This document shows, one piece after another, positions 11,836 to 35,034 of a stretch of DNA of 64,000 nucleotides. The notes beneath the pieces were generated by a model. That model was given only the letters and a program-made list of their open reading frames with translations. It did not search any database and was not told the origin of the DNA. The stretch lies in NCBI RefSeq assembly GCF_054482525.1, contig NZ_CM137006.1. One strand, written 5' to 3'. Both the position numbers and the translations under genes were made by a program. Position 1 is the first letter of the stretch, and every line of letters starts with the position of its first letter.

Positions 11836-11859
11836 TGTAACTTTAATGGAGTTATTTAT

Positions 11860-12102: not shown

Positions 12103-12148
12103 AATTCACTCAGGGGCATTTGTTGCCCCTTTATTAAATTGGGTTATT

Positions 12149-14829: not shown

Positions 14830-14836
14830 TATTACT

Positions 14837-17097: not shown

Positions 17098-17130
17098 GGT
17101 GCGCATAATGTGCTACACGTTATGTTGAAA
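17098..17130 (+). other. Phage att (dif-like) site, junction of copies 2 and 3
   Basis: Identical to 8355-8387. Confidence 0.8.
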
Positions 17131-17197
17131 AGGCCGCTGCGAAAATAGAACCCCGCAGCGGCCTCTTTAGCATAACGTCATTGTGCGAACCAATTAT

Positions 17198-17530
17198 TTA
17201 TTTTTTTGATTTTTGAGTTGCCTCAATTTCTTTTTTTAAACCATGAAGGTTTTTATGACCGGTTCCCTTTGGTTGTAACTGTCCCCTTTGTAACTTACTG
17301 ATTCTATTTCCTCTTTCTGATATTACTATTTCATCATTCAGGGATTTTTCAATCAATGCATACAACGCATTGAATACTTTGATGTTTTCTGATTCCCTCA
17401 ACTCTTCGAGGATTTTACTTAGTTGTAGAAAGTCATTAATTAAACTAACGCCATTTTTAGGATCGTAAAACTCCTCATGTCGTTTTAACATCTTTGCAAT
17501 CTTTTTTTGCTTATCTGTTGCGTTTGACAT
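17198..17530 (-). CDS. orf110 hypothetical accessory protein (copy 3)
   Basis: Repeat of 8455-8787 at +8743. Confidence 0.55.
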   Translation of the reverse strand: MSNATDKQKKIAKMLKRHEEFYDPKNGVSLINDFLQLSKILEELRESENIKVFNALYALIEKSLNDEIVISERGNRISKLQRGQLQPKGTGHKNLHGLKKEIEATQKSKK

Positions 17531-17553
17531 TTTCCCTTTCCCTTCAACTAGAT

Positions 17554-17850
17554 TTAATCATTACATTCAACCGTTGCTACGGTTCCATAATAAGTAATGT
17601 AAAGAAAACTTCCATTATTGAACTGGCCAACAGAGGTCGATACTTTTACCCCGTAAATGACATTTCCTTGTCTACCTGCAGAATTCACGAACGCATCATA
17701 GGCTTCCTGGTGCTCATTTCTCTTGCGCTCCATAAAACCACGAATTAAACCTTTATCAGAAATTTCAATAGGATAGGTCTTCTCAATAAATCCATGAATC
17801 TCTACTACTTTCATATTGGAGGGCAATGTATCAGTGCTTAACACTAACAT
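17554..17850 (-). CDS. orf98 hypothetical accessory protein (copy 3)
   Basis: Repeat at +17486. Confidence 0.55.
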   Translation of the reverse strand: MLVLSTDTLPSNMKVVEIHGFIEKTYPIEISDKGLIRGFMERKRNEHQEAYDAFVNSAGRQGNVIYGVKVSTSVGQFNNGSFLYITYYGTVATVECND

Positions 17851-18004
17851 GTTGATTTCCTTTCAATTAAAGAACCTTAATGACATTACTTAATTATTTC
17901 ATTTCAATCAACAACATATGGGTTGTTTTTTATCATTCCGACACTATATCTAGGCGAGATAACTAAAATGGCTAGTTATCACTATACCTCTAAAGGATAA
18001 AATA

Positions 18005-18295
18005 ATGGCTGACTTCTACATAACAGCAGTAAAATATGATGAAAATCATGAACATATCGTTAAGGTTAAAACACGGCAACGAGTTGATGGTAAGGTTAAA
18101 GCACCAAGCATCAATTCTCGCCAATTTATCGTCGAATTGATTAATACCGGAAAGGTATCATTTTGGACTGGATTACAGGATAGCGAAGGACGATGGGGAA
18201 AAGGGGCTGACGTGACCGTAACCTCTACTGGTTTCCTGACTACATCACCAAATAATACCACTCGGGATAACCTCGGCGAATTGCCTGAATTTTAA
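18005..18295 (+). CDS. Hypothetical small protein (96 aa), possibly DUF3892-like (copy 3)
   Basis: Repeat at +17486. Confidence 0.5.
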   Translation: MADFYITAVKYDENHEHIVKVKTRQRVDGKVKAPSINSRQFIVELINTGKVSFWTGLQDSEGRWGKGADVTVTSTGFLTTSPNNTTRDNLGELPEF

Positions 18296-18359
18296 CCAAA
18301 AATCAAACGTGCAGTGTAGGTAATACTGCACGTTTGTCTCATTCCTGAGACTCTACCTT

Positions 18360-18806
18360 TTACTGTTCATCGCCAGTGATTAATTTTCTGGTTAACATCT
18401 TTGCACTGTAGCTATATGAACTTAAAGCAGAAACCTGTCTTGCAAGTGATATGATATCTTGCTTGTCCAATGTCCTGATGTTCCAGATAATGAAGTTATG
18501 GGCATCAGTGGTTTCTTTGTCAGTGTAACCATCTGCTGAAGTGATCAACTTTCTTTCTGTTGCGTCTTCTTTAACCGCAAGTGCATCACCATGAGCCAAG
18601 GTGTTTAAATCCGTACCAGTGATTTTTGCGATTTCGATCACATCACTGAACTTAGGTTCTGTTTTAGCAGTCGCTATCCTAACAAGTGTCCTTACGTTGA
18701 TGCCGGTTTTGTCTGCGACTTCTTCGTATGTCCCATGCTCCAGGATAGCTTTCCGTATTCTTTCTGCTCGCTTGCTATCAGCCATAACATACAACTCTCG
18801 ATTCAT
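18360..18806 (-). CDS. HTH regulator, candidate repressor (copy 3)
   Basis: Repeat at +17486. Confidence 0.7.
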   Translation of the reverse strand: MNRELYVMADSKRAERIRKAILEHGTYEEVADKTGINVRTLVRIATAKTEPKFSDVIEIAKITGTDLNTLAHGDALAVKEDATERKLITSADGYTDKETTDAHNFIIWNIRTLDKQDIISLARQVSALSSYSYSAKMLTRKLITGDEQ

Positions 18807-19012
18807 CTTAGGTGCTCCAGTTTACATCACTCTTTTTAGATGCTTTTTTTCATGGACAAATATGTCCTTAAAAACAAGACATCGTATTGACAACAGATCT
18901 CAACATGCTTAGCATTTATTTGTCCATGACTGAAAGACACATTTGTCTATTGACATGGTAAATACAGGTAAAAGTCATTTTGATTCATGTTTACTTGACT
19001 GCTGAGACACTT

Positions 19013-20065
19013 ATGATCGACTGGTTTACCGGAATCCTGCCTTGCACACACCGACCGTTACCGGCCGGTAGCGTCGTCAGCGTTGATGCTGATGGTGCGG
19101 TGGAGTGGGAAACAGTAAAACGGTTGACCGTTCGCGGTTCGTATGAATCAACGATGAAAGTAAGATCTGTTGGATCTGATGGCGAAGGTCGGGCAACACA
19201 TCTTTATATTGATGGGAATCCTTCAAAATTCCTTCAGGGACATTCTGTTATTGGTTCTGATGATTTGCAGGGACTGGTATTAACCGTATACGCAAGAATA
19301 CTGGCATTACTTCATATTCCTCATGATCTCCCGTCATATCGTCAGGTAATGTCTGGTCAGTATAAGATTTCCCGTATTGATATTAATTATATGTATTCAT
19401 TGTCAACACTGGAAAATGTCCGTGCATGGTTATATGCCGCAGAATTTAAAGCGAAAACTCGCCATGGTCGCGCCTGTGGTAAAGGTGGCACTGTTTACTT
19501 AGGGAAAAACTCCCGTCGTTGGAGCCTGAAATTTTATTCAAAATATGATGAGCATATATCTGGCAAAAAAGGGCACCAGATGGCAGACGAATTCGTTAAA
19601 GCAGGTTTACTGGACTGGTCAAAAGATAAATTACGCATTGAATTAACATTAAGAACAACTGAATTAATTGATTTGAATCTTACGCTTGGTAATAGCTGGA
19701 ATATTCAGACGCCCAATAAATTATTCTCTGACTATGTAGGGAGAATAGAAATGAATCAAAATACTATATTAACTGATGAAAAAATAATTAATCTCCCAAG
19801 AAAAATACAGTCTACATATTTATTGTGGAAGCAGGGCGCGAACATGAAAGAGATGTTACCGAAACCTACATTCTACCGACACCGTAAAGAATTACTTTCT
19901 TTCGGAATAGATATTAACTTTTATTGTGAGTCACCGGATTCTAATAACGTTGTTCCGTTGGTTCGTATTCTTGAAGCCAAACCGGCCAAAATTCCATCAT
20001 GGTTTTATGAGAAAGGTTTAATTTTCGATCATAACCGTATTTCACATGCCAGTAACTGGTATTAA
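19013..20065 (+). CDS. gII: Replication initiator gII homologue (copy 3)
   Basis: Repeat at +17486; nested gX-like restart at 19751. Confidence 0.85.
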   Translation: MIDWFTGILPCTHRPLPAGSVVSVDADGAVEWETVKRLTVRGSYESTMKVRSVGSDGEGRATHLYIDGNPSKFLQGHSVIGSDDLQGLVLTVYARILALLHIPHDLPSYRQVMSGQYKISRIDINYMYSLSTLENVRAWLYAAEFKAKTRHGRACGKGGTVYLGKNSRRWSLKFYSKYDEHISGKKGHQMADEFVKAGLLDWSKDKLRIELTLRTTELIDLNLTLGNSWNIQTPNKLFSDYVGRIEMNQNTILTDEKIINLPRKIQSTYLLWKQGANMKEMLPKPTFYRHRKELLSFGIDINFYCESPDSNNVVPLVRILEAKPAKIPSWFYEKGLIFDHNRISHASNWY

Positions 20066-20076
20066 AGGAGAGTGAT

Positions 20077-20394
20077 ATGTCTAATTATGGTCTTTTTGTA
20101 AAAGGTAAAATGCTTGGTGCTCGCCAGCGTAATAAGGTCAATGGTCAGGGATACTATAATGAAATTGGTATTGGCTTAGAGATCCCTGATGGTTTTGGCG
20201 GCACTAAGCAAGACCAGATTATTATTCGTGTTTCTCAGGCTCTTGTTAATGCCGGTGTAATGAATCAGGCAAATAATCTTATCGGTAAGTTAGTCCAGAT
20301 ACCTGTATATGTTCGTGTCTGGTCAATGGAAGGTAGAGAAGGAGTAACTTATAATATTTCATCTGACGGTGGAATCACTGAAATAAAAGGTTAA
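20077..20394 (+). CDS. gV: Putative ssDNA-binding protein gV analogue (copy 3)
   Basis: Repeat at +17486. Confidence 0.55.
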   Translation: MSNYGLFVKGKMLGARQRNKVNGQGYYNEIGIGLEIPDGFGGTKQDQIIIRVSQALVNAGVMNQANNLIGKLVQIPVYVRVWSMEGREGVTYNISSDGGITEIKG

Positions 20395-20396
20395 AT

Positions 20397-20483
20397 ATGG
20401 CTGATGTTATACAAATATTAATAGCGTCAGGCATTGTTATCTCTTTTGGCCTCGGCGCAATTACTGCGGGGGTTTTTCGTTAA
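20397..20483 (+). CDS. gVII: gVII analogue (copy 3)
   Basis: Repeat at +17486. Confidence 0.5.
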   Translation: MADVIQILIASGIVISFGLGAITAGVFR

Positions 20484-20578
20484 TGTATATAGCTTATTTC
20501 TTCGGGGCTTATACCTTTGGTTTTGCCCTTTTCTACGCGGTCGGTTCATTTAAATCATTTTCTGACCGATTAATGTAA
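20483..20578 (+). CDS. gIX: gIX analogue (copy 3)
   Basis: Repeat at +17486. Confidence 0.45.
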   Translation: MYIAYFFGAYTFGFALFYAVGSFKSFSDRLM

Positions 20579-20602
20579 TGTAACTTTAATGGAGTTATTT
20601 AT

Positions 20603-20845
20603 ATGAAAGTTTTGTCTTTTGTTAAATCTAAAATTGCAGTAGCTTCAACAGCGCTTTTTGTTTCTGCGAGTTCTTTTGCGGCAGCTGAGTCTACAGGCGG
20701 GACTGATTATGCAGGTCAGGCAATGGATGCATTACTGACTCAGGCAAATGATCTTATTGGTAAAGTATGGCCTGTCGTTGTTGCTGTGGTTGGTGCTGGC
20801 CTTGCCATTCGTATTTTTAAAAAATTCGCTTCTAAAGCAGTTTAA
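20603..20845 (+). CDS. gVIII: Major coat protein precursor (copy 3)
   Basis: Repeat at +17486. Confidence 0.85.
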
Positions 20846-20891
20846 AATTCACTCAGGGGCATTTGTTGCCCCTTTATTAAATTGGGTTATT

Positions 20892-22136
20892 ATGAAAAGG
20901 AAAATATTAATTACTTTCTCTATTTTTATTTCTTCTTTTTCATATGCTGATTCATGGGAAAGCATTACTAAATCTACTTTTCAAAGCTCTGCATATGCTG
21001 AAAGTAAGCAAATAACCAACCAAGATGGTACTAAACAAACTGTTTATTATATTGATGCAACCATGCAGGCTTCTTCCTGTCAGGGAGCTAAAGACAGTGC
21101 TCAGGTTGTTTTTAATCAGGTTAAACCAACTTATGAGGGAATGTGGCCTAACTCTGAATTCCGTCTTGTATTTTCTGACGCTTGTACTTACAGCGACTCT
21201 CCAGGCCAGAAAGATAAATACTGGACTTTAACTGCTTATATTATAGGTGATATTCAACGATCTATTCCTGATGAAAAACCTTCCGAGCCTACGCCTGAAG
21301 AGATTTGTGAAGCTAAACCCCCCGAAGAAGGTGTATTCAATAATGTCTATTCTTATGACGGTGATCGTTATATTTATTATAACGGTTGTGAATATGAGGC
21401 CACTGGCGTCATTGTTTGCCAGAGTGATAGCACTGTTTGTGCTGCGACATGGAAGCCTACCGGAACTGTAGCCGCACCTTCAGATAAGCCTTCTTCTCCT
21501 GTTGGCGATGGCGGTGATACTGGAGGCGGGGATACGGGTGATGGTGATACCGGTGGAGGTGATACAGGCGGTGGTAACCCAAGTGGCAGTTCTGGCGGTG
21601 GTAATGGCTCAAGTATCACCAAAGGAGATATTCAGTCAGCTATCGAAGGTGCTTCACCTAAAATTGCCAGTGAGATTCATGATAAGTTAACAGAAAAAGA
21701 TACCTCATCTGATGATAAAAAGTCGGCTGATGAACAGACTAAAAATAATATAAATCGTCTTGTTGACTCTATAAATAACCTTACTCGCGGAGCCGGACGT
21801 TTTGCTGATCCTTCTGGCGGCGATTCCCGTTATGGGGAGGGGGGGTCTGAATTAGATAGCGCTTCCACTTTAGCTGAATCTGAATTAGGAATTGCAAAGG
21901 ATTCTCATGGTGCGTTATGGGAGGCTTTCTTAAATAAAGGTGCTATGTTGCCCAATTTACCTAATGGTAATGGTTGTTCTGATTTTATTATTTTCCCCGG
22001 AGAGGTTTATCAGATCGATATTGGCTGCGATAAATTACTGACTATTAAAAATGCTCTTTCATGGGTTTTTTATTGCCTTACGTTCTGGTATGTATTTACT
22101 TCTTTAACTTCATTGCTTCGTAAAGGTGGTGAGTGA
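20892..22136 (+). CDS. gIII: Adsorption protein pIII (copy 3)
   Basis: Repeat at +17486. Confidence 0.8.
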
Positions 22137-22477
22137 TGCCTTTATTATTAGGTATTCCTGCATTGTTGCGTTTTCTTATTGGTCTTGTTCCTTTACTTAT
22201 TGGCTATGCGGCAAGTTTTTTAGCTCGGCTTGCAACCAAAACAGGTTTAATAGCGGTTGCATTGGTTGCGCTAATTACAACAACTGTTACGCTTTTAATG
22301 CAGTACCTTGCTGAGGTCATGTATATCGGGTTACCCGCTGATTTTTCACATCTAATGGCGTCTGTACTGCCTGACCATTTTCAGGCGTGTGTTAACGTTA
22401 TTATGGTTACTCGTATCAGTGTTTTTGTTTTCGATTTAAAACAAAAATTTCTTGATTATGCAAACAGGGTGATTTAA
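22133..22477 (+). CDS. gVI: Minor coat protein pVI (copy 3)
   Basis: Repeat at +17486. Confidence 0.8.
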
Positions 22478-23572
22478 ATGGCGGTTCATGTAGTAACAGG
22501 CAAATTAGGCTCAGGCAAGACACTGGTTAGTGTTTCCAGAATACAGGAAAGACTGGCTAAGGGTTGTCCTGTTGCCACTAATCTTGATCTTAAATTGCAT
22601 AATATGCCTATGGTTGGGCGTTATGCTAAAAAAACGCGCGTTATTCGTGTTCCTGATAAGCCTTCATTAAATGATTTACTGGCTATTGGTATTGGAAATA
22701 CATCTTACGATGAATCCCGCAATGGCCTTTTAGTGCTTGATGAATGTGGTACTTGGTTTAATTCCCGTTCATGGGGTGATAAAGACAGACAACCTGTTAT
22801 TGACTGGTTTTTACATGCCCGTAAATTAGGTTGGGATATTATTTTTTTGATTCAGGATATTTCGATAATGGATAAGCAAGCTCGTCTGGCACTTGCTGAA
22901 CATGTTGTTTATTGTCGCCGTTCAGATAAATTAAACATTCCTTTTATTGGCTCTATTATAAATTTAGTTTCAGGAGCGCGATTTTCTTTACCAAAGGTAC
23001 ACTTTGGTATTGTTAAATATGGTGATAACGTTAATTCAATTACTGTTGATAAATGGATATACACCGGAAAATCATTATATTCCGCCTACAATACAAAACA
23101 GGTTTTTACTGATAACTATCCGCATGGTGCTTATTCTCTTTTACCGCCATTTATTACACATGGCCAGTTTTCTGTTCACAAAGGACTTAATTATTATATG
23201 CGCCTCACGAAAATTTATTTCCGAAAATCAAACCGATTAATATTAATGCTTTCATTTTTTGCCTTTGGGCTTGGGCTTGGCTTCTGGCTACAATCTGGTA
23301 AGAATGCCGATGAAATTTCGGCTATTAAATCAGTTCATGCTGAACAGGTGAGGGCGGTAACACCTGACAGTACCAGCGATTTACCGAGACTTTCTATTGA
23401 TTCTTTCTCTCAGCTTGGTTTTGATGTTTCTGTTACGTTTGTTGACGCTAAGGGTATGAAGTACCAGTATTTTGATTTAATTAAAGATGGTTATTCCGTT
23501 GATATTAAAGATGCCTGCCGAATTGTTATCAGAAAAGGCCATTATTTACAAAGCGTCACCTGTCAGGAGTAA
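22478..23572 (+). CDS. gI: Assembly ATPase pI (copy 3)
   Basis: Repeat at +17486; nested pXI-like restart at 23198. Confidence 0.9.
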   Translation: MAVHVVTGKLGSGKTLVSVSRIQERLAKGCPVATNLDLKLHNMPMVGRYAKKTRVIRVPDKPSLNDLLAIGIGNTSYDESRNGLLVLDECGTWFNSRSWGDKDRQPVIDWFLHARKLGWDIIFLIQDISIMDKQARLALAEHVVYCRRSDKLNIPFIGSIINLVSGARFSLPKVHFGIVKYGDNVNSITVDKWIYTGKSLYSAYNTKQVFTDNYPHGAYSLLPPFITHGQFSVHKGLNYYMRLTKIYFRKSNRLILMLSFFAFGLGLGFWLQSGKNADEISAIKSVHAEQVRAVTPDSTSDLPRLSIDSFSQLGFDVSVTFVDAKGMKYQYFDLIKDGYSVDIKDACRIVIRKGHYLQSVTCQE

Positions 23573-23579
23573 TATTACT

Positions 23580-24845
23580 ATGCGTTTATTTTGCATTGCC
23601 ATCTTATTCATTTATTCTTTTTGTGTTTCTGCTGAAACTGTTAATCTTAATAATTCATCCGTTCGTTCATTTGTCCAGTGGTATTCATCAAAAACTGGTA
23701 AGCCTGTTATTGTTAACCCCGATGTTAAAGGCTCCGTAACAGTATTTAATGCTGATGTTAATCCCACAAATATTGATGACTTTTTCAAATCTGTTCTGAA
23801 TGCTAATGGATTTGTCATGCTTTCTGGTAATCCTGCGGTAGTATCTTTGCCGTCAAAATTACCGTCACAGATGGCATCAGACCCTGATGATTCCGATAAT
23901 CAGTCTTATGACTCTTTTCCGCCAGAGCCATCCTGTCAGCCAGCGCCTGTGGCGCTCACTGTCAGAAATTTTAAGCTGACAAAAGTACGAGCGTCTGATG
24001 TTCAGCAACTGGTTAAAATTTATCTGGATTCGAATGGCGGGGGTAATGTCGTGGATTATCCCGGCAATAACTCCCTGATTGTATCTGCGCCTGACGAGCT
24101 ACTGCCTGTTCTGTCCAATTTCATTAACTCAGTTGATGTTGCCCGTGATCAGGTACTCATTCAATCGCTCATGTTTGAAACCAGTTTGTCTGATGGTGTT
24201 GATTTGTCATTTGCAGCTGGCTCTGCATCCGGCCATAAGGTGGCGGGGGGTTTTAATACTTCTGCGCTGGGTAATGCTCTTTCTACGGTGGGCGGCTCTT
24301 TTGGTATTTTTGATGGTAACGTGTTGGCGCTGTCTCTGCGTGCTGTCCAGAGTAATTCACGCTCTAAGGTGATTTCAACACCGCGCATTCTTACTCAGTC
24401 CGGTCAGACTGGTTATATTTCCGTAGGTAAGAATGTGCCGTTTATCACAGGAAAGGTAACGGGTGAATCTGCTGGGGTAAATAATCCGTTTCAGACTATC
24501 GAACGTCATGATGTTGGCGTTTCTCTCAAGGTAACGCCTGTTGTCATGGGGAACGGGCAATTAGTTTTGACCATCGATACCCGCGCCGATTCAATCAGCA
24601 ATGATGACCAAGCATCTGATATTATTACTAATCAGCGCCAGATTCAGACCACTGTTCAGATTAAGGATGGCCAGACTCTCTTACTTGGTGGGTTGATTGA
24701 TTCATCATCCAGCAATGCTGACCGTTCTGTACCATTTATCAGCAAAATTCCGGTAATTGGCTGGCTTTTCAGGAGTAAAGCTGACAGTAATGAGCAACGC
24801 ATTATGTATGTCCTGCTGACTGCTCATATTATTCGTGCGCTTTGA
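23580..24845 (+). CDS. gIV: Secretin pIV (copy 3)
   Basis: Repeat at +17486. Confidence 0.9.
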   Translation: MRLFCIAILFIYSFCVSAETVNLNNSSVRSFVQWYSSKTGKPVIVNPDVKGSVTVFNADVNPTNIDDFFKSVLNANGFVMLSGNPAVVSLPSKLPSQMASDPDDSDNQSYDSFPPEPSCQPAPVALTVRNFKLTKVRASDVQQLVKIYLDSNGGGNVVDYPGNNSLIVSAPDELLPVLSNFINSVDVARDQVLIQSLMFETSLSDGVDLSFAAGSASGHKVAGGFNTSALGNALSTVGGSFGIFDGNVLALSLRAVQSNSRSKVISTPRILTQSGQTGYISVGKNVPFITGKVTGESAGVNNPFQTIERHDVGVSLKVTPVVMGNGQLVLTIDTRADSISNDDQASDIITNQRQIQTTVQIKDGQTLLLGGLIDSSSSNADRSVPFISKIPVIGWLFRSKADSNEQRIMYVLLTAHIIRAL

Positions 24846-25392
24846 TGGGGCCGTGGCGGGTGCGTTAAGCCCCGGTATGGCCCCATCAAGAGCCAGATTT
24901 TACGTCTCACCACGGAGCCTCTATATGGCCTTAAAACTGACAGGATATGAACAGAAAAACATCTTCTAGGTGATTCAATTACTTAGAGGTTTTTATGTCT
25001 GTAAAAAGTAGGGGCGCGATCGACTTCCTGGTGGTCGCCTGAAGTCTTACCGTCGTGTTGGTTCACATTTTACCAGTTGTTCCAAGTGGTTTGATAAATC
25101 ACCGTCCTGGTATCGCAATATGATGATGACCCGGCCAGAGCGCCGTGAAGTCAGAAAGCTTCTCAATCAGGTTGTACGTGGCCGTGACGCTGACGGCATC
25201 GCATTTCCGGTCAGCAACAAGCCATTTGCATGGCGGTGGTGAACATTTTTAGCCGCTAAAACTTCATGCTGACGGAATTATCGAAAACCCCGTACAGCAA
25301 CAAAACTTGTTTTTGTTGCTGTACGGGGTTGGCCAAGCCGCAACAGTACTCTATTTTTCTTTGGAGTTAATTGCGGCGCGGCTAGGGATGTA

Positions 25393-25638
25393 TCAGACTT
25401 TAATCTTAACTACTTTTTCAGTGCCGGTCATAAAACTAACCAGCTTCTTGCGGCCATCGGGATACTCTTTAATGACACATCCTTCTGGCGTATTTTTTTC
25501 AGCGTAATAAATAGGGACGCCACTAAGAAGACAGGCTCGGGCTGCTTCACCGACATCATGTTCTAGTTGCTGCTCGAAAACAGTCAAGAACTCTGCTTCC
25601 TCTGATGGTGTCATTTCAGCTAAATATGATAAGTCCAT
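25393..25638 (-). CDS. orf81 hypothetical accessory protein (copy 3)
   Basis: Repeat at +17486. Confidence 0.45.
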   Translation of the reverse strand: MDLSYLAEMTPSEEAEFLTVFEQQLEHDVGEAARACLLSGVPIYYAEKNTPEGCVIKEYPDGRKKLVSFMTGTEKVVKIKV

Positions 25639-25840
25639 AAATGCTCATGCCTTCTGTAATTCATTGCTTAGTAACAATGATGAACAGGCCTGATTGGTGA
25701 GGTCAGGCTGTTCACTTACTGCTGACAGACATTTGATTCTGATTCGTTTGGAGAAACGGATGATTTTGAATCATTGTCGATAGTAACCAGTTGACGGCCA
25801 GTGTCAACGATCCCCGCCAGATTCTGCCATCCTTACCATT

Positions 25841-25873
25841 GGTGCGCATAATGTGCTACACGTTATGTTGAAA
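25841..25873 (+). other. Phage att (dif-like) site, junction of copies 3 and 4
   Basis: Identical to 8355-8387. Confidence 0.8.
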
Positions 25874-25940
25874 AGGCCGCTGCGAAAATAGAACCCCGCA
25901 GCGGCCTCTTTAGCATAACGTCATTGTGCGAACCAATTAT

Positions 25941-26273
25941 TTATTTTTTTGATTTTTGAGTTGCCTCAATTTCTTTTTTTAAACCATGAAGGTTTTTATG
26001 ACCGGTTCCCTTTGGTTGTAACTGTCCCCTTTGTAACTTACTGATTCTATTTCCTCTTTCTGATATTACTATTTCATCATTCAGGGATTTTTCAATCAAT
26101 GCATACAACGCATTGAATACTTTGATGTTTTCTGATTCCCTCAACTCTTCGAGGATTTTACTTAGTTGTAGAAAGTCATTAATTAAACTAACGCCATTTT
26201 TAGGATCGTAAAACTCCTCATGTCGTTTTAACATCTTTGCAATCTTTTTTTGCTTATCTGTTGCGTTTGACAT
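25941..26273 (-). CDS. orf110 hypothetical accessory protein (copy 4)
   Basis: Repeat of 8455-8787 at +17486. Confidence 0.55.
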   Translation of the reverse strand: MSNATDKQKKIAKMLKRHEEFYDPKNGVSLINDFLQLSKILEELRESENIKVFNALYALIEKSLNDEIVISERGNRISKLQRGQLQPKGTGHKNLHGLKKEIEATQKSKK

Positions 26274-26296
26274 TTTCCCTTTCCCTTCAACTAGAT

Positions 26297-26593
26297 TTAA
26301 TCATTACATTCAACCGTTGCTACGGTTCCATAATAAGTAATGTAAAGAAAACTTCCATTATTGAACTGGCCAACAGAGGTCGATACTTTTACCCCGTAAA
26401 TGACATTTCCTTGTCTACCTGCAGAATTCACGAACGCATCATAGGCTTCCTGGTGCTCATTTCTCTTGCGCTCCATAAAACCACGAATTAAACCTTTATC
26501 AGAAATTTCAATAGGATAGGTCTTCTCAATAAATCCATGAATCTCTACTACTTTCATATTGGAGGGCAATGTATCAGTGCTTAACACTAACAT
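26297..26593 (-). CDS. orf98 hypothetical accessory protein (copy 4)
   Basis: Repeat at +26229. Confidence 0.55.
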   Translation of the reverse strand: MLVLSTDTLPSNMKVVEIHGFIEKTYPIEISDKGLIRGFMERKRNEHQEAYDAFVNSAGRQGNVIYGVKVSTSVGQFNNGSFLYITYYGTVATVECND

Positions 26594-26747
26594 GTTGATT
26601 TCCTTTCAATTAAAGAACCTTAATGACATTACTTAATTATTTCATTTCAATCAACAACATATGGGTTGTTTTTTATCATTCCGACACTATATCTAGGCGA
26701 GATAACTAAAATGGCTAGTTATCACTATACCTCTAAAGGATAAAATA

Positions 26748-27038
26748 ATGGCTGACTTCTACATAACAGCAGTAAAATATGATGAAAATCATGAACATAT
26801 CGTTAAGGTTAAAACACGGCAACGAGTTGATGGTAAGGTTAAAGCACCAAGCATCAATTCTCGCCAATTTATCGTCGAATTGATTAATACCGGAAAGGTA
26901 TCATTTTGGACTGGATTACAGGATAGCGAAGGACGATGGGGAAAAGGGGCTGACGTGACCGTAACCTCTACTGGTTTCCTGACTACATCACCAAATAATA
27001 CCACTCGGGATAACCTCGGCGAATTGCCTGAATTTTAA
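26748..27038 (+). CDS. Hypothetical small protein (96 aa), possibly DUF3892-like (copy 4)
   Basis: Repeat at +26229. Confidence 0.5.
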   Translation: MADFYITAVKYDENHEHIVKVKTRQRVDGKVKAPSINSRQFIVELINTGKVSFWTGLQDSEGRWGKGADVTVTSTGFLTTSPNNTTRDNLGELPEF

Positions 27039-27102
27039 CCAAAAATCAAACGTGCAGTGTAGGTAATACTGCACGTTTGTCTCATTCCTGAGACTCTACC
27101 TT

Positions 27103-27549
27103 TTACTGTTCATCGCCAGTGATTAATTTTCTGGTTAACATCTTTGCACTGTAGCTATATGAACTTAAAGCAGAAACCTGTCTTGCAAGTGATATGATAT
27201 CTTGCTTGTCCAATGTCCTGATGTTCCAGATAATGAAGTTATGGGCATCAGTGGTTTCTTTGTCAGTGTAACCATCTGCTGAAGTGATCAACTTTCTTTC
27301 TGTTGCGTCTTCTTTAACCGCAAGTGCATCACCATGAGCCAAGGTGTTTAAATCCGTACCAGTGATTTTTGCGATTTCGATCACATCACTGAACTTAGGT
27401 TCTGTTTTAGCAGTCGCTATCCTAACAAGTGTCCTTACGTTGATGCCGGTTTTGTCTGCGACTTCTTCGTATGTCCCATGCTCCAGGATAGCTTTCCGTA
27501 TTCTTTCTGCTCGCTTGCTATCAGCCATAACATACAACTCTCGATTCAT
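27103..27549 (-). CDS. HTH regulator, candidate repressor (copy 4)
   Basis: Repeat at +26229. Confidence 0.7.
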   Translation of the reverse strand: MNRELYVMADSKRAERIRKAILEHGTYEEVADKTGINVRTLVRIATAKTEPKFSDVIEIAKITGTDLNTLAHGDALAVKEDATERKLITSADGYTDKETTDAHNFIIWNIRTLDKQDIISLARQVSALSSYSYSAKMLTRKLITGDEQ

Positions 27550-27755
27550 CTTAGGTGCTCCAGTTTACATCACTCTTTTTAGATGCTTTTTTTCATGGAC
27601 AAATATGTCCTTAAAAACAAGACATCGTATTGACAACAGATCTCAACATGCTTAGCATTTATTTGTCCATGACTGAAAGACACATTTGTCTATTGACATG
27701 GTAAATACAGGTAAAAGTCATTTTGATTCATGTTTACTTGACTGCTGAGACACTT

Positions 27756-28808
27756 ATGATCGACTGGTTTACCGGAATCCTGCCTTGCACACACCGACCG
27801 TTACCGGCCGGTAGCGTCGTCAGCGTTGATGCTGATGGTGCGGTGGAGTGGGAAACAGTAAAACGGTTGACCGTTCGCGGTTCGTATGAATCAACGATGA
27901 AAGTAAGATCTGTTGGATCTGATGGCGAAGGTCGGGCAACACATCTTTATATTGATGGGAATCCTTCAAAATTCCTTCAGGGACATTCTGTTATTGGTTC
28001 TGATGATTTGCAGGGACTGGTATTAACCGTATACGCAAGAATACTGGCATTACTTCATATTCCTCATGATCTCCCGTCATATCGTCAGGTAATGTCTGGT
28101 CAGTATAAGATTTCCCGTATTGATATTAATTATATGTATTCATTGTCAACACTGGAAAATGTCCGTGCATGGTTATATGCCGCAGAATTTAAAGCGAAAA
28201 CTCGCCATGGTCGCGCCTGTGGTAAAGGTGGCACTGTTTACTTAGGGAAAAACTCCCGTCGTTGGAGCCTGAAATTTTATTCAAAATATGATGAGCATAT
28301 ATCTGGCAAAAAAGGGCACCAGATGGCAGACGAATTCGTTAAAGCAGGTTTACTGGACTGGTCAAAAGATAAATTACGCATTGAATTAACATTAAGAACA
28401 ACTGAATTAATTGATTTGAATCTTACGCTTGGTAATAGCTGGAATATTCAGACGCCCAATAAATTATTCTCTGACTATGTAGGGAGAATAGAAATGAATC
28501 AAAATACTATATTAACTGATGAAAAAATAATTAATCTCCCAAGAAAAATACAGTCTACATATTTATTGTGGAAGCAGGGCGCGAACATGAAAGAGATGTT
28601 ACCGAAACCTACATTCTACCGACACCGTAAAGAATTACTTTCTTTCGGAATAGATATTAACTTTTATTGTGAGTCACCGGATTCTAATAACGTTGTTCCG
28701 TTGGTTCGTATTCTTGAAGCCAAACCGGCCAAAATTCCATCATGGTTTTATGAGAAAGGTTTAATTTTCGATCATAACCGTATTTCACATGCCAGTAACT
28801 GGTATTAA
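27756..28808 (+). CDS. gII: Replication initiator gII homologue (copy 4)
   Basis: Repeat at +26229; nested gX-like restart at 28494. Confidence 0.85.
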   Translation: MIDWFTGILPCTHRPLPAGSVVSVDADGAVEWETVKRLTVRGSYESTMKVRSVGSDGEGRATHLYIDGNPSKFLQGHSVIGSDDLQGLVLTVYARILALLHIPHDLPSYRQVMSGQYKISRIDINYMYSLSTLENVRAWLYAAEFKAKTRHGRACGKGGTVYLGKNSRRWSLKFYSKYDEHISGKKGHQMADEFVKAGLLDWSKDKLRIELTLRTTELIDLNLTLGNSWNIQTPNKLFSDYVGRIEMNQNTILTDEKIINLPRKIQSTYLLWKQGANMKEMLPKPTFYRHRKELLSFGIDINFYCESPDSNNVVPLVRILEAKPAKIPSWFYEKGLIFDHNRISHASNWY

Positions 28809-28819
28809 AGGAGAGTGAT

Positions 28820-29137
28820 ATGTCTAATTATGGTCTTTTTGTAAAAGGTAAAATGCTTGGTGCTCGCCAGCGTAATAAGGTCAATGGTCAGGGATACTAT
28901 AATGAAATTGGTATTGGCTTAGAGATCCCTGATGGTTTTGGCGGCACTAAGCAAGACCAGATTATTATTCGTGTTTCTCAGGCTCTTGTTAATGCCGGTG
29001 TAATGAATCAGGCAAATAATCTTATCGGTAAGTTAGTCCAGATACCTGTATATGTTCGTGTCTGGTCAATGGAAGGTAGAGAAGGAGTAACTTATAATAT
29101 TTCATCTGACGGTGGAATCACTGAAATAAAAGGTTAA
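28820..29137 (+). CDS. gV: Putative ssDNA-binding protein gV analogue (copy 4)
   Basis: Repeat at +26229. Confidence 0.55.
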   Translation: MSNYGLFVKGKMLGARQRNKVNGQGYYNEIGIGLEIPDGFGGTKQDQIIIRVSQALVNAGVMNQANNLIGKLVQIPVYVRVWSMEGREGVTYNISSDGGITEIKG

Positions 29138-29139
29138 AT

Positions 29140-29226
29140 ATGGCTGATGTTATACAAATATTAATAGCGTCAGGCATTGTTATCTCTTTTGGCCTCGGCG
29201 CAATTACTGCGGGGGTTTTTCGTTAA
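29140..29226 (+). CDS. gVII: gVII analogue (copy 4)
   Basis: Repeat at +26229. Confidence 0.5.
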   Translation: MADVIQILIASGIVISFGLGAITAGVFR

Positions 29227-29321
29227 TGTATATAGCTTATTTCTTCGGGGCTTATACCTTTGGTTTTGCCCTTTTCTACGCGGTCGGTTCATTTAAATCA
29301 TTTTCTGACCGATTAATGTAA
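29226..29321 (+). CDS. gIX: gIX analogue (copy 4)
   Basis: Repeat at +26229. Confidence 0.45.
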   Translation: MYIAYFFGAYTFGFALFYAVGSFKSFSDRLM

Positions 29322-29345
29322 TGTAACTTTAATGGAGTTATTTAT

Positions 29346-29588
29346 ATGAAAGTTTTGTCTTTTGTTAAATCTAAAATTGCAGTAGCTTCAACAGCGCTTT
29401 TTGTTTCTGCGAGTTCTTTTGCGGCAGCTGAGTCTACAGGCGGGACTGATTATGCAGGTCAGGCAATGGATGCATTACTGACTCAGGCAAATGATCTTAT
29501 TGGTAAAGTATGGCCTGTCGTTGTTGCTGTGGTTGGTGCTGGCCTTGCCATTCGTATTTTTAAAAAATTCGCTTCTAAAGCAGTTTAA
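29346..29588 (+). CDS. gVIII: Major coat protein precursor (copy 4)
   Basis: Repeat at +26229. Confidence 0.85.
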
Positions 29589-29634
29589 AATTCACTCAGG
29601 GGCATTTGTTGCCCCTTTATTAAATTGGGTTATT

Positions 29635-30879
29635 ATGAAAAGGAAAATATTAATTACTTTCTCTATTTTTATTTCTTCTTTTTCATATGCTGATTCATGG
29701 GAAAGCATTACTAAATCTACTTTTCAAAGCTCTGCATATGCTGAAAGTAAGCAAATAACCAACCAAGATGGTACTAAACAAACTGTTTATTATATTGATG
29801 CAACCATGCAGGCTTCTTCCTGTCAGGGAGCTAAAGACAGTGCTCAGGTTGTTTTTAATCAGGTTAAACCAACTTATGAGGGAATGTGGCCTAACTCTGA
29901 ATTCCGTCTTGTATTTTCTGACGCTTGTACTTACAGCGACTCTCCAGGCCAGAAAGATAAATACTGGACTTTAACTGCTTATATTATAGGTGATATTCAA
30001 CGATCTATTCCTGATGAAAAACCTTCCGAGCCTACGCCTGAAGAGATTTGTGAAGCTAAACCCCCCGAAGAAGGTGTATTCAATAATGTCTATTCTTATG
30101 ACGGTGATCGTTATATTTATTATAACGGTTGTGAATATGAGGCCACTGGCGTCATTGTTTGCCAGAGTGATAGCACTGTTTGTGCTGCGACATGGAAGCC
30201 TACCGGAACTGTAGCCGCACCTTCAGATAAGCCTTCTTCTCCTGTTGGCGATGGCGGTGATACTGGAGGCGGGGATACGGGTGATGGTGATACCGGTGGA
30301 GGTGATACAGGCGGTGGTAACCCAAGTGGCAGTTCTGGCGGTGGTAATGGCTCAAGTATCACCAAAGGAGATATTCAGTCAGCTATCGAAGGTGCTTCAC
30401 CTAAAATTGCCAGTGAGATTCATGATAAGTTAACAGAAAAAGATACCTCATCTGATGATAAAAAGTCGGCTGATGAACAGACTAAAAATAATATAAATCG
30501 TCTTGTTGACTCTATAAATAACCTTACTCGCGGAGCCGGACGTTTTGCTGATCCTTCTGGCGGCGATTCCCGTTATGGGGAGGGGGGGTCTGAATTAGAT
30601 AGCGCTTCCACTTTAGCTGAATCTGAATTAGGAATTGCAAAGGATTCTCATGGTGCGTTATGGGAGGCTTTCTTAAATAAAGGTGCTATGTTGCCCAATT
30701 TACCTAATGGTAATGGTTGTTCTGATTTTATTATTTTCCCCGGAGAGGTTTATCAGATCGATATTGGCTGCGATAAATTACTGACTATTAAAAATGCTCT
30801 TTCATGGGTTTTTTATTGCCTTACGTTCTGGTATGTATTTACTTCTTTAACTTCATTGCTTCGTAAAGGTGGTGAGTGA
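29635..30879 (+). CDS. gIII: Adsorption protein pIII (copy 4)
   Basis: Repeat at +26229. Confidence 0.8.
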
Positions 30880-31220
30880 TGCCTTTATTATTAGGTATTC
30901 CTGCATTGTTGCGTTTTCTTATTGGTCTTGTTCCTTTACTTATTGGCTATGCGGCAAGTTTTTTAGCTCGGCTTGCAACCAAAACAGGTTTAATAGCGGT
31001 TGCATTGGTTGCGCTAATTACAACAACTGTTACGCTTTTAATGCAGTACCTTGCTGAGGTCATGTATATCGGGTTACCCGCTGATTTTTCACATCTAATG
31101 GCGTCTGTACTGCCTGACCATTTTCAGGCGTGTGTTAACGTTATTATGGTTACTCGTATCAGTGTTTTTGTTTTCGATTTAAAACAAAAATTTCTTGATT
31201 ATGCAAACAGGGTGATTTAA
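30876..31220 (+). CDS. gVI: Minor coat protein pVI (copy 4)
   Basis: Repeat at +26229. Confidence 0.8.
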
Positions 31221-32315
31221 ATGGCGGTTCATGTAGTAACAGGCAAATTAGGCTCAGGCAAGACACTGGTTAGTGTTTCCAGAATACAGGAAAGACTGGC
31301 TAAGGGTTGTCCTGTTGCCACTAATCTTGATCTTAAATTGCATAATATGCCTATGGTTGGGCGTTATGCTAAAAAAACGCGCGTTATTCGTGTTCCTGAT
31401 AAGCCTTCATTAAATGATTTACTGGCTATTGGTATTGGAAATACATCTTACGATGAATCCCGCAATGGCCTTTTAGTGCTTGATGAATGTGGTACTTGGT
31501 TTAATTCCCGTTCATGGGGTGATAAAGACAGACAACCTGTTATTGACTGGTTTTTACATGCCCGTAAATTAGGTTGGGATATTATTTTTTTGATTCAGGA
31601 TATTTCGATAATGGATAAGCAAGCTCGTCTGGCACTTGCTGAACATGTTGTTTATTGTCGCCGTTCAGATAAATTAAACATTCCTTTTATTGGCTCTATT
31701 ATAAATTTAGTTTCAGGAGCGCGATTTTCTTTACCAAAGGTACACTTTGGTATTGTTAAATATGGTGATAACGTTAATTCAATTACTGTTGATAAATGGA
31801 TATACACCGGAAAATCATTATATTCCGCCTACAATACAAAACAGGTTTTTACTGATAACTATCCGCATGGTGCTTATTCTCTTTTACCGCCATTTATTAC
31901 ACATGGCCAGTTTTCTGTTCACAAAGGACTTAATTATTATATGCGCCTCACGAAAATTTATTTCCGAAAATCAAACCGATTAATATTAATGCTTTCATTT
32001 TTTGCCTTTGGGCTTGGGCTTGGCTTCTGGCTACAATCTGGTAAGAATGCCGATGAAATTTCGGCTATTAAATCAGTTCATGCTGAACAGGTGAGGGCGG
32101 TAACACCTGACAGTACCAGCGATTTACCGAGACTTTCTATTGATTCTTTCTCTCAGCTTGGTTTTGATGTTTCTGTTACGTTTGTTGACGCTAAGGGTAT
32201 GAAGTACCAGTATTTTGATTTAATTAAAGATGGTTATTCCGTTGATATTAAAGATGCCTGCCGAATTGTTATCAGAAAAGGCCATTATTTACAAAGCGTC
32301 ACCTGTCAGGAGTAA
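31221..32315 (+). CDS. gI: Assembly ATPase pI (copy 4)
   Basis: Repeat at +26229; nested pXI-like restart at 31941. Confidence 0.9.
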   Translation: MAVHVVTGKLGSGKTLVSVSRIQERLAKGCPVATNLDLKLHNMPMVGRYAKKTRVIRVPDKPSLNDLLAIGIGNTSYDESRNGLLVLDECGTWFNSRSWGDKDRQPVIDWFLHARKLGWDIIFLIQDISIMDKQARLALAEHVVYCRRSDKLNIPFIGSIINLVSGARFSLPKVHFGIVKYGDNVNSITVDKWIYTGKSLYSAYNTKQVFTDNYPHGAYSLLPPFITHGQFSVHKGLNYYMRLTKIYFRKSNRLILMLSFFAFGLGLGFWLQSGKNADEISAIKSVHAEQVRAVTPDSTSDLPRLSIDSFSQLGFDVSVTFVDAKGMKYQYFDLIKDGYSVDIKDACRIVIRKGHYLQSVTCQE

Positions 32316-32322
32316 TATTACT

Positions 32323-33588
32323 ATGCGTTTATTTTGCATTGCCATCTTATTCATTTATTCTTTTTGTGTTTCTGCTGAAACTGTTAATCTTAATAATTCA
32401 TCCGTTCGTTCATTTGTCCAGTGGTATTCATCAAAAACTGGTAAGCCTGTTATTGTTAACCCCGATGTTAAAGGCTCCGTAACAGTATTTAATGCTGATG
32501 TTAATCCCACAAATATTGATGACTTTTTCAAATCTGTTCTGAATGCTAATGGATTTGTCATGCTTTCTGGTAATCCTGCGGTAGTATCTTTGCCGTCAAA
32601 ATTACCGTCACAGATGGCATCAGACCCTGATGATTCCGATAATCAGTCTTATGACTCTTTTCCGCCAGAGCCATCCTGTCAGCCAGCGCCTGTGGCGCTC
32701 ACTGTCAGAAATTTTAAGCTGACAAAAGTACGAGCGTCTGATGTTCAGCAACTGGTTAAAATTTATCTGGATTCGAATGGCGGGGGTAATGTCGTGGATT
32801 ATCCCGGCAATAACTCCCTGATTGTATCTGCGCCTGACGAGCTACTGCCTGTTCTGTCCAATTTCATTAACTCAGTTGATGTTGCCCGTGATCAGGTACT
32901 CATTCAATCGCTCATGTTTGAAACCAGTTTGTCTGATGGTGTTGATTTGTCATTTGCAGCTGGCTCTGCATCCGGCCATAAGGTGGCGGGGGGTTTTAAT
33001 ACTTCTGCGCTGGGTAATGCTCTTTCTACGGTGGGCGGCTCTTTTGGTATTTTTGATGGTAACGTGTTGGCGCTGTCTCTGCGTGCTGTCCAGAGTAATT
33101 CACGCTCTAAGGTGATTTCAACACCGCGCATTCTTACTCAGTCCGGTCAGACTGGTTATATTTCCGTAGGTAAGAATGTGCCGTTTATCACAGGAAAGGT
33201 AACGGGTGAATCTGCTGGGGTAAATAATCCGTTTCAGACTATCGAACGTCATGATGTTGGCGTTTCTCTCAAGGTAACGCCTGTTGTCATGGGGAACGGG
33301 CAATTAGTTTTGACCATCGATACCCGCGCCGATTCAATCAGCAATGATGACCAAGCATCTGATATTATTACTAATCAGCGCCAGATTCAGACCACTGTTC
33401 AGATTAAGGATGGCCAGACTCTCTTACTTGGTGGGTTGATTGATTCATCATCCAGCAATGCTGACCGTTCTGTACCATTTATCAGCAAAATTCCGGTAAT
33501 TGGCTGGCTTTTCAGGAGTAAAGCTGACAGTAATGAGCAACGCATTATGTATGTCCTGCTGACTGCTCATATTATTCGTGCGCTTTGA
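32323..33588 (+). CDS. gIV: Secretin pIV (copy 4)
   Basis: Repeat at +26229. Confidence 0.9.
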   Translation: MRLFCIAILFIYSFCVSAETVNLNNSSVRSFVQWYSSKTGKPVIVNPDVKGSVTVFNADVNPTNIDDFFKSVLNANGFVMLSGNPAVVSLPSKLPSQMASDPDDSDNQSYDSFPPEPSCQPAPVALTVRNFKLTKVRASDVQQLVKIYLDSNGGGNVVDYPGNNSLIVSAPDELLPVLSNFINSVDVARDQVLIQSLMFETSLSDGVDLSFAAGSASGHKVAGGFNTSALGNALSTVGGSFGIFDGNVLALSLRAVQSNSRSKVISTPRILTQSGQTGYISVGKNVPFITGKVTGESAGVNNPFQTIERHDVGVSLKVTPVVMGNGQLVLTIDTRADSISNDDQASDIITNQRQIQTTVQIKDGQTLLLGGLIDSSSSNADRSVPFISKIPVIGWLFRSKADSNEQRIMYVLLTAHIIRAL

Positions 33589-34135
33589 TGGGGCCGTGGC
33601 GGGTGCGTTAAGCCCCGGTATGGCCCCATCAAGAGCCAGATTTTACGTCTCACCACGGAGCCTCTATATGGCCTTAAAACTGACAGGATATGAACAGAAA
33701 AACATCTTCTAGGTGATTCAATTACTTAGAGGTTTTTATGTCTGTAAAAAGTAGGGGCGCGATCGACTTCCTGGTGGTCGCCTGAAGTCTTACCGTCGTG
33801 TTGGTTCACATTTTACCAGTTGTTCCAAGTGGTTTGATAAATCACCGTCCTGGTATCGCAATATGATGATGACCCGGCCAGAGCGCCGTGAAGTCAGAAA
33901 GCTTCTCAATCAGGTTGTACGTGGCCGTGACGCTGACGGCATCGCATTTCCGGTCAGCAACAAGCCATTTGCATGGCGGTGGTGAACATTTTTAGCCGCT
34001 AAAACTTCATGCTGACGGAATTATCGAAAACCCCGTACAGCAACAAAACTTGTTTTTGTTGCTGTACGGGGTTGGCCAAGCCGCAACAGTACTCTATTTT
34101 TCTTTGGAGTTAATTGCGGCGCGGCTAGGGATGTA

Positions 34136-34381
34136 TCAGACTTTAATCTTAACTACTTTTTCAGTGCCGGTCATAAAACTAACCAGCTTCTTGCGGCCAT
34201 CGGGATACTCTTTAATGACACATCCTTCTGGCGTATTTTTTTCAGCGTAATAAATAGGGACGCCACTAAGAAGACAGGCTCGGGCTGCTTCACCGACATC
34301 ATGTTCTAGTTGCTGCTCGAAAACAGTCAAGAACTCTGCTTCCTCTGATGGTGTCATTTCAGCTAAATATGATAAGTCCAT
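34136..34381 (-). CDS. orf81 hypothetical accessory protein (copy 4)
   Basis: Repeat at +26229. Confidence 0.45.
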   Translation of the reverse strand: MDLSYLAEMTPSEEAEFLTVFEQQLEHDVGEAARACLLSGVPIYYAEKNTPEGCVIKEYPDGRKKLVSFMTGTEKVVKIKV

Positions 34382-34583
34382 AAATGCTCATGCCTTCTGT
34401 AATTCATTGCTTAGTAACAATGATGAACAGGCCTGATTGGTGAGGTCAGGCTGTTCACTTACTGCTGACAGACATTTGATTCTGATTCGTTTGGAGAAAC
34501 GGATGATTTTGAATCATTGTCGATAGTAACCAGTTGACGGCCAGTGTCAACGATCCCCGCCAGATTCTGCCATCCTTACCATT

Positions 34584-34611
34584 GGTGCGCATAATGTATA
34601 TTATGTTAAAT
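34584..34611 (+). other. dif: Chromosomal dif site (XerC arm, 6-bp central region, XerD arm)
   Basis: Exact 28-mer GGTGCGCATAATGTATATTATGTTAAAT, the canonical E. coli dif as recalled; phage sequence ends within or next to the central region. Confidence 0.93.
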
Positions 34612-34779
34612 GGAATTTGAGTGATGCGAAGCGATTTTCCAGTCGTCGTTATTACTTCAGGGTTCCAGAACATAAAGCCTCTCCTCTTTCATGATTGGCC
34701 TGTGCATACCGGATATAGGCTGGCAGGTTTGCCGTTTGCCGCATCTTCCCTGCGTTGAAGAGTCAGGCTGGCAAACTGC

Positions 34780-35034
34780 GTGCAAATGAACACCCCCTCT
34801 TTCTATCAACACTTCAGACAGCTTGCGGGAATGAGTTCACTCCGGTATCAGAAATGGCTACGCCTCAATGAAGCCAGGCGACTGATGCTGAATGAACATT
34901 ACGATGTCACCACTGCAGCCTATGCTGTCGGTTACGAAAGCTTATCCCATTTCAGTCGGGAATATTCGCGGATATTTGGAGAGTCACCTAAGAGAGATAT
35001 TACTAAATTAAGAAAGCCTCTTGGTCAGCTTTAA
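34780..35034 (+). pseudogene. yneL: AraC-family HTH C-terminal fragment (yneL-like remnant)
   Basis: 84-aa ORF matching only the C-terminal HTH-containing part of AraC/XylS regulators; position next to dif matches the K-12 yneL pseudogene as recalled. Confidence 0.55.

Follow-up and report, generated by a model that had tools for sequence, protein, structure and literature searches.

An exact dif site at the right end of a tandem array of UPΦ-type inovirus prophages

The prophage array and its boundary with the host

The window, by which we mean the whole 64-kb stretch of DNA that was analysed, opens inside a tandem array of an inovirus prophage and passes into host DNA after position 34597. 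The array is apparent in base composition as a periodicity of about 9 kb from position 1 to about 34.6 kb, and its GC skew is positive. Repeat finding and direct shifted comparison set the period at 8743 bp, with copies that are 100% identical. At a shift of 8743 bp, there are zero mismatches from position 1 until 25854 is compared with 34597, and the first mismatch is that of 25855 with 34598. The array comprises at least four copies, of which three are complete and the first is truncated by the left edge of the window. As position 1 is 375 nt into that copy, the junction before it would be at -388, and the left boundary of the array is outside the window. The copies, and the genes of the last of them, are as follows.

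1..34597, + strand: tandem array of an 8743-bp inovirus prophage (no mismatch at period 8743)
1-8368: array copy cut by the window start
8369-17111, 17112-25854 and 25855-34597: complete array copies
25941-26273, - strand: 110-aa accessory ORF (last copy)
26297-26593, - strand: 98-aa accessory ORF (non-significant YbjQ-like Pfam match)
26748-27038, + strand: 96-aa accessory ORF, DUF3892 (Pfam)
27103..27549, - strand: HTH transcriptional regulator, placed where CTXΦ has its repressor RstR (phrog_3557, E = 1e-61)
27723..28808, + strand: rolling-circle replication initiator of the pII/X family (phrog_702, E = 7e-120; annotation of relatives)
28820-29137, + strand: single-stranded DNA (ssDNA)-binding protein
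29140-29226, + strand: small virion protein
29346-29588, + strand: major coat protein
29632-30879, + strand: attachment protein pIII, with a Gly-rich repeat (phrog_4150 / phrog_1944 matches for the pair of pIII and pVI-like protein)
30876-31220, + strand: pVI-like minor protein (phrog_4150 / phrog_1944, as one of the same pair)
31221-32315, + strand: assembly ATPase pI/Zot (phrog_1675 / phrog_1012 matches for the pair of pI and pIV)
32323-33588, + strand: secretin pIV (phrog_1675 / phrog_1012, as one of the same pair; TIGR02517)
34136..34381, - strand: conserved 81-aa phage ORF near attR (phrog_21003, E = 4e-55)

Each unit carries a complete filamentous-phage gene set on the + strand, in the sense II-V-VIII-III-VI-I-IV, and small accessory ORFs are present at both of its ends. 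Apart from pII, pIII, pI and pIV, the 8743-bp unit includes no ORF of integrase size, and the accessory ORFs encode at most 148 aa. The unit shares with CTX-type elements the lack of an element-encoded recombinase, its ORFs having either inovirus functions or small accessory products. The accessory and regulator module (25956-27737, with segments 25956-27047 and 27104-27737, and likewise in each copy) has no relative of at least 80% identity among about 30 related prophage loci, and a search of the accessory ORFs with PADLOC gave no credible match to defence systems. The nicking sequence of Ff gpII was not found in a search that allowed up to three mismatches. Within the pIII gene, the Gly-rich repeat is of the GGGDTG type (30230-30340, and in each copy), and an FtsK-orienting KOPS motif at 30577 is located further downstream in the same gene. 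Variation in repeat number has been reported for the Gly-rich linker of UPΦ g3p.

An 82-aa conserved hypothetical ORF is frameshifted at 33739-33985, and at the equivalent position of each copy, by the loss of one T near 33756. The lesion leaves a 40-aa ORF at 33863-33985, and the ORF is intact in the prophage of strain LSN03-016011/A (20139-20387). Because the copies are identical and all carry this 1-nt frameshift, the amplification postdates the mutation and all copies descend from one element. Identical copies do not, however, distinguish successive integration from unequal crossing-over or an assembly effect.

The boundary between phage and host falls within a dif site, which is followed by host genes.

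34584..34611, + strand: chromosomal dif, which is also attR of the prophage array (exact, unique 28-mer)
34584-34594, + strand: XerC arm of dif, GGTGCGCATAA
34595-34600, + strand: central region of dif, TGTATA
34601-34611, + strand: XerD arm of dif, TTATGTTAAAT
34780..35034, + strand: yneL-type remnant on the XerD side of dif, a C-terminal fragment of an AraC-family HTH protein

The sequence GGTGCGCATAATGTATATTATGTTAAAT at 34584-34611 (+ strand) is the exact 28-bp E. coli dif, composed of GGTGCGCATAA-TGTATA-TTATGTTAAAT and set within ...ccatt and ggaatt... (34561-34620). It is the single match to the 28-mer in the window at up to three mismatches, where 0 are expected from 100 shuffles, and the sole 11-6-11 Xer layout on either strand when each arm must match at 8 or more of 11 positions. 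A search for a second, independent dif in the window gave only one other half-site match, at 57872, which has two mismatches, is at chance level and was rejected. The first 14 bases of dif, GGTGCGCATAATGT, occur at 8355, 17098, 25841 and 34584, whereas the last 14, ATATTATGTTAAAT, occur at 34598 only. The last copy stops right after GGTGCGCATAATGT (34597), and host sequence starts with ATATTATGTTAAAT at 34598. Thus, the first 11-14 nt of the site are derived from the phage and the remainder from the host. The 28-mer is probably the chromosome-dimer-resolution site of the host, surviving as the right attachment site of the array.

The host sequence to the right conforms to the expected neighborhood of dif. 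The interval 34563-35289 is 84% identical to the dif-yneL interval of K-12, and relatives annotate the yneL-type fragment as an incomplete HTH regulator. The original prediction held that an exact dif is rebuilt where the last copy meets the host, beside a yneL-like remnant, and that hybrid sites separate the copies. Each of these statements agrees with the site's exactness and uniqueness, the end of identity after GGTGCGCATAATGT, the C-terminal AraC-type HTH fragment encoded by the ORF at 34780-35034 and the junction sequences described below. The prediction also placed a hybrid site at the left boundary, a position beyond the window, and a hybrid attL was seen in two relatives (strains LSN03-016011/A and F11). 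The yneL-type fragment is followed by a fimA-like/ydeS/ydeR/ydeQ fimbrial operon and then ydeP. Like most E. coli, the window has an intact version of this operon (35420-40000: fimA-like, chaperone, full-length usher, ydeS, ydeR and ydeQ), and K-12 keeps just a truncated usher (ydeT) by yneL. The gene order in K-12 is hipA-dif-yneL, of which the hipA side is outside the window.

Inter-copy junctions and the attP hairpin

Three junctions between copies are present in the window, and each corresponds to the attP region of the phage.

8352..8451, + strand: junction 1, the phage attP region (fold and inverted arms)
17095..17194, + strand: junction 2, identical to junction 1
25838..25937, + strand: junction 3, identical to junction 1

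All three share only 14 bases with dif and then continue as GCTACACG-TTATGTTGAAA, in a non-canonical 11-11-11 layout. In order, each junction comprises the XerC arm GGTGCGCATAA, the 11-nt spacer TGTGCTACACG, the XerD-like arm TTATGTTGAAA, an apical stem-loop and an inverted second dif-like site. The XerC arm and the adjoining TGT are identical to those of dif. On the XerD side, matches to dif at spacings of 6, 7 and 8 bp are 6/11, 2/11 and 2/11, and the sole good XerD-like arm of the duplex form (9/11) is at 11-bp spacing. The second dif-like site is on the - strand about 60 nt downstream and has a 5-bp spacer, GGTTCGCACAA-TGACG-TTATGCTAAAG. Known Xer sites have central regions of 6-8 bp. For this reason, the junctions, with spacers of 11 bp (+ strand) and 5 bp (- strand), are presumably non-functional as duplex Xer substrates.

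As a single strand, 8352-8451 (+) is predicted to fold into a forked hairpin of -34 kcal/mol (z = -7.9), formed by the inverted arms 8352-8367/8436-8451 and 8374-8398/8411-8435. In this structure the two XerC-like arms pair together, as do the two XerD-like arms, six nucleotides (TGCTAC) bulge out, and the loop consists of 12 nt. In Ff and CTXΦ, the packaged strand is the one with the sense of the phage genes. The strand that forms the hairpin has the sense of the phage genes, and by this rule it is therefore the packaged strand.

The conservation of the hairpin was assessed in 21 distinct attP sequences that were collected by pattern scans of IMG/VR and of E. coli loci. Positions are paired in 98% of cells across this set, compared with 28-48% in slid controls, and five pairs exhibit compensatory changes. 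Few events underlie the covariation: the 5' arm was a constant of the search pattern, and a single divergent locus (L030) contributed three of the five compensatory pairs. The bulge and the apical loop are hypervariable. A pattern in which the whole spacer was left free returned the same 23 loci, every one of them with the TGT, and the next six bases vary. At least ten variants of the spacer bulge occur; the GCTACA of the window is also found in L023, and ACGACT is a common type.

This attP cassette of about 100 nt is common to inoviruses whose matches to the phage otherwise cover just 1% or so of its length (L007, L009, L011-L013, L017, L019, L022-L024, L026 and L029, compared with window positions 8355-8451). 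With its invariant arms and TGT, the cassette resembles an exchangeable module. The apical stem-loop might also terminate transcription of the accessory genes that run leftward; a terminator scan did not flag it, as its 12-nt loop is longer than the scan allows.

Prophage-free relatives, KOPS polarity and related prophages

The right flank of 24.4 kb has 100.0% identity to the genomes SCU-102, PCN033 and 19KM1776. A probe spanning the junction matches each of them from two bases before dif onward, hence no phage end is present. The empty locus of PCN033 has the same 28-mer (position 3003), with the identical flank after it and host DNA before it. The dif of the window is thus the same as that of K-12 and of the empty site in PCN033, which is the outcome anticipated when a comparison with a prophage-free relative was originally proposed. 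To the left of dif, PCN033 has a truncated hipA and an ISNCY transposase remnant (2041-2933) and no intact hipA. In a metagenomic prophage contig (L027, 951-962), identical left-flank bases, ctctataatttt, adjoin another UPΦ-like phage. Lysogeny at dif has therefore been established in this host lineage on more than one occasion.

Motifs of the KOPS type point to the same site from both sides.

30577..30584 (also 4348, 13091 and 21834), + strand: KOPS GGGNAGGG, directed toward dif, one per phage copy

No KOPS that opposes translocation toward dif is found in the array. The KOPS to the left of dif are on the + strand only, and the five to the right (41232-59541) are all on the - strand. The polarity also switches at dif in LSN03-016011/A and in the five-unit array of strain F11. 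The 28-mer is therefore at the terminus position expected of dif, with the yneL-type fragment on its right and KOPS converging on it. The pattern is consistent with tolerance of the array and stops short of proving selection. The orientation of the KOPS within the phage was considered as a sign of selection and set aside, since a single motif in each unit is insufficient for this purpose and the richness of the coding strand in G would by itself favor that orientation.

A search of deposited phage genomes with the whole unit as query matched only Lineavirus I2-2, in gene I and at 75%, so the collection contains no reference genome for this phage. Related prophages were found in a survey of 5426 complete E. 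coli genomes, a set from which the window's own genome is absent. The best match has 97.8% identity over 79% of the unit and belongs to a closest group with 97-98% over about 79%; a large group that includes ECONIH2 and F11 has about 86% identity over 68%. The same phage end, fused to a full dif, is present in 110 of the 5426 genomes (about 2%). The prophage of LSN03-016011/A is a single copy, flanked by a hybrid attL by hipA and a perfect dif at attR.

In F11 (NZ_CP076123), hipA and a perfect dif enclose five tandem units that represent two or three kinds, again with a hybrid attL (records L006 19984-47535 and L032 1-9741). UPΦ-like units come first in this array, followed by units with structural genes of the DUF2523/GspD type, and accessory modules are swapped. 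Such a mixed array would permit the formation of hybrid phages, as in CTXΦ. Our unit shares only part of its DNA sequence with the other type of phage in the array (F11 units 3-5), whose structural genes are different. FDAARGOS_1257 and EC5502 carry arrays too. That of EC5502 (NZ_CP092647, record 1-38 kb) is very long, with 14-16 matching places, and has frameshifts and internal stops in every copy. These lesions look like uncorrected long-read error, which makes copy number and sequence unreliable in such arrays.

Integration model and its alternatives

The locus is very probably the product of a CTX-type element that exploits XerC/XerD and whose integration rebuilt dif at the right end of the array. 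The element is a UPΦ-group filamentous phage of 8.7 kb, a relative of I2-2 and IKe, and its attachment module is that of phages in the CUS-1/YpfΦ circle. In CTXΦ, whose attP1 is AGTGCGTATTA-TGTGGCGCGGCA-TTATGTTGAGG, the substrate is folded (+) ssDNA; XerC exchanges one pair of strands, the exchange is stabilized by pairing at the cleavage site, replication completes the reaction, and one functional dif results together with non-functional attP1/attP2 (PMC3089051). CUS-1 and Ypf also have features for ssDNA integration (PMC3089051). CTX-type integration, whose members include RS1, YpfΦ and CUS-1Φ, is irreversible, and phage production relies on rolling-circle replication from tandem prophages (PMC4246890).

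The unit resembles CTXΦ of Vibrio cholerae in several respects: a XerC arm, a long spacer starting with TGT and then a XerD arm (TTATGTTGA.. in CTXΦ), a second inverted site, a forked hairpin on the (+) strand, regeneration of dif on one side, tandem arrays and the lack of a phage integrase. It differs in its host and dif sequence, in having no toxin genes and in details of the attachment site, with a spacer of 11 rather than 12 nt and a hairpin of about 100 nt with a 12-nt loop, compared with about 150 nt and a 90-nt separation in CTXΦ. It also differs from CTXΦ in being known here from sequence alone. Three CTX-type features of the attachment site are recognizable: two inverted dif-like sites fold on (+) ssDNA into a forked hairpin, homology to the central region of dif is confined to the XerC side (TGT), and, at the level of sequence, one perfect dif is accompanied by junctions with 11-bp or 5-bp spacers.

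Among phages that use the E. coli dif, the closest description is that of UPΦ (UPΦ901 and ECONIH2; Shapiro and Putonti 2020, PMC7307601). Its tandem repeats at dif match only the first fifteen bases of that site, and ECONIH2, a tandem triple, is a named example (PMC7307601). In common with UPΦ, the unit repeats only the first 14-15 bases of dif, and it has core genes related to those of I2-2/IKe and reverse-oriented accessory ORFs right after the dif-like site. Its assignment to this group was made through ECONIH2 (86% over 68%) and gene I of I2-2, both as stand-ins for UPΦ901. The unit differs from UPΦ in its private accessory and regulator module (25956-27737), its GCTACA bulge in place of the common ACGACT and its array of at least four identical copies; no hairpin is described for UPΦ in PMC7307601. 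YpfΦ of Yersinia pestis and CUS-1 of E. coli O18:K1:H7, compared here by description, are also 8.7-kb inoviruses at dif, with dif rebuilt on the 3' side, 2-4 copies, inverted XerC/XerD sites and variable ORFs by attL (PMC4266046). The private accessory segment fits this known mosaicism by attL (PMC4266046).

In the CTX-type model, the forked hairpin of about 100 nt on the viral (+) strand would bring two inverted dif-like sites together, providing a duplex for XerC, another for XerD and a central region from which 6 nt bulge out. XerC would then exchange a single strand pair of the hairpin with dif, directly 3' of GGTGCGCATAA; the TGT in common with the central region TGTATA would stabilize this exchange, and replication would resolve the resulting pseudo-Holliday junction. 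By analogy with CTXΦ, we infer that the substrate is ssDNA and that XerC alone catalyzes the reaction. Because the XerC arm and TGT of the phage are those of dif, a perfect dif results on the right. The junctions between copies, and presumably that on the left, consist of the XerC arm, the phage spacer and the phage XerD-like arm, and are not expected to be Xer substrates as duplex DNA. The rebuilt dif would serve as a landing site for further copies, which would produce the array, and copies would be lost by homologous recombination (RecA) between the identical 8.7-kb repeats. A tandem array would, as in CTXΦ, allow the rolling-circle initiator to make phage ssDNA without excision.

Dimer resolution probably continues at the rebuilt dif, since the polarity of the KOPS still converges on this site. 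That a regenerated dif explains the tolerance of a multi-copy insertion, as originally predicted, is also the explanation published for CTXΦ, YpfΦ, CUS-1 and UPΦ, in which the rebuilt site is, in addition, the target of further integrations (PMC3089051, PMC4266046, PMC7307601); that the site functions in this way here would follow by analogy. The same prediction proposed that Xer recombination both adds and removes copies. Gain at the rebuilt dif is plausible and has published precedent. Loss by this route is unlikely, because the duplex spacers are 11 and 5 bp and CTX-type attP sites are described as irreversible (PMC4246890). In YpfΦ, an intact dif is rebuilt at the 3' end, 2-4 tandem copies vary in number within a population, and homologous recombination was suggested to account for their loss (PMC4266046).

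Xer-mediated loss would be expected if the phage integrated reversibly as a duplex, as VGJΦ- and TLCΦ-type phages do. Those phages resemble the unit in using XerCD at dif and in restoring dif on integration, but their attP is one duplex of 28-29 bp and their integration is reversible (PMC4246890), whereas the unit has non-canonical spacing and a second site that forms a hairpin. Under such a reading, the junction GGTGCGCATAA-TGTGCT-ACACGTTATGT would itself be attP, and Xer would add and remove copies. A XerC arm and TGT identical to those of dif are a hallmark of VGJ-type sites too, and an 'imperfect dif' between resident copies is a reported insertion site of YpfΦ (PMC4266046). The XerD-side arm, however, is only 6/11, 2/11 and 2/11 at spacings of 6-8 bp, its 9/11 version being at 11 bp, and the second inverted site and conserved hairpin would be unneeded by a VGJ-type phage. 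With the related CUS-1 and YpfΦ classed as CTX-type (PMC4246890), we consider duplex integration improbable. The reported preferential insertion of superinfecting YpfΦ between copies (PMC4266046) nevertheless does not fit the simple CTX-type model. It would be explained if the junctions were still live, each folding into an attP(+)-like hairpin in every replication round or extruding as a cruciform, and recombining with the neighboring dif or an incoming phage. The insertion orientation is fixed, such that the (+) strand of the hairpin is the lagging-strand template of the fork that nears dif from the left, and GC skew and KOPS agree on this. If this idea were true, copy number would change in a Xer-dependent and RecA-independent manner, but we give it slightly less credence still than duplex integration.

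Other alternatives accept the sequence of the site and question either the array or the role of the 28-mer. Perhaps dif and the phage-host junction are real, and the copy number reflects an effect of the assembler on replicative-form or concatemeric DNA, or unequal crossing-over by RecA. All copies are 100% identical and have the same 1-nt frameshift relative to LSN03-016011/A, the related EC5502 array comes from an evidently error-rich assembly, and short-read assemblies collapse such repeats (PMC7307601), all of which such a reading would accommodate. Arrays of 2-5 units have, on the other hand, been demonstrated by experiment for YpfΦ (PMC4266046) and by read coverage for UPΦ (PMC7307601), and the F11 array is in a good assembly with non-identical units, which is not the product of a collapse or expansion artefact. 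This explanation of the copy number is therefore unlikely, yet it merits some weight. Only 64 kb of the genome is in view, so that the 28-mer might instead be a bystander, with a working dimer-resolution site elsewhere and the array tolerated for another reason. Its canonical position by yneL, its presence in empty-locus relatives, the switch of KOPS polarity exactly here and the lack of any other Xer-like site with a 6-bp spacer in the window make this idea scarcely credible.

The array is, then, a further example of an already described phage group and an already described mechanism, with a private accessory module. The locus should be annotated as dif plus a tandem array of a UPΦ-type inovirus, and the junctions should not be annotated as extra dif sites. 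The survey adds that the attP cassette is common to otherwise unrelated enterobacterial inoviruses and that about 2% of complete E. coli genomes contain a fusion of this phage end with dif. The case illustrates how a multi-copy phage may reside at the replication terminus without harm to chromosome segregation. The ingredients of this tolerance appear to be an exact XerC arm supplied by the phage, a fixed orientation of insertion and an absence of KOPS directed against FtsK translocation.
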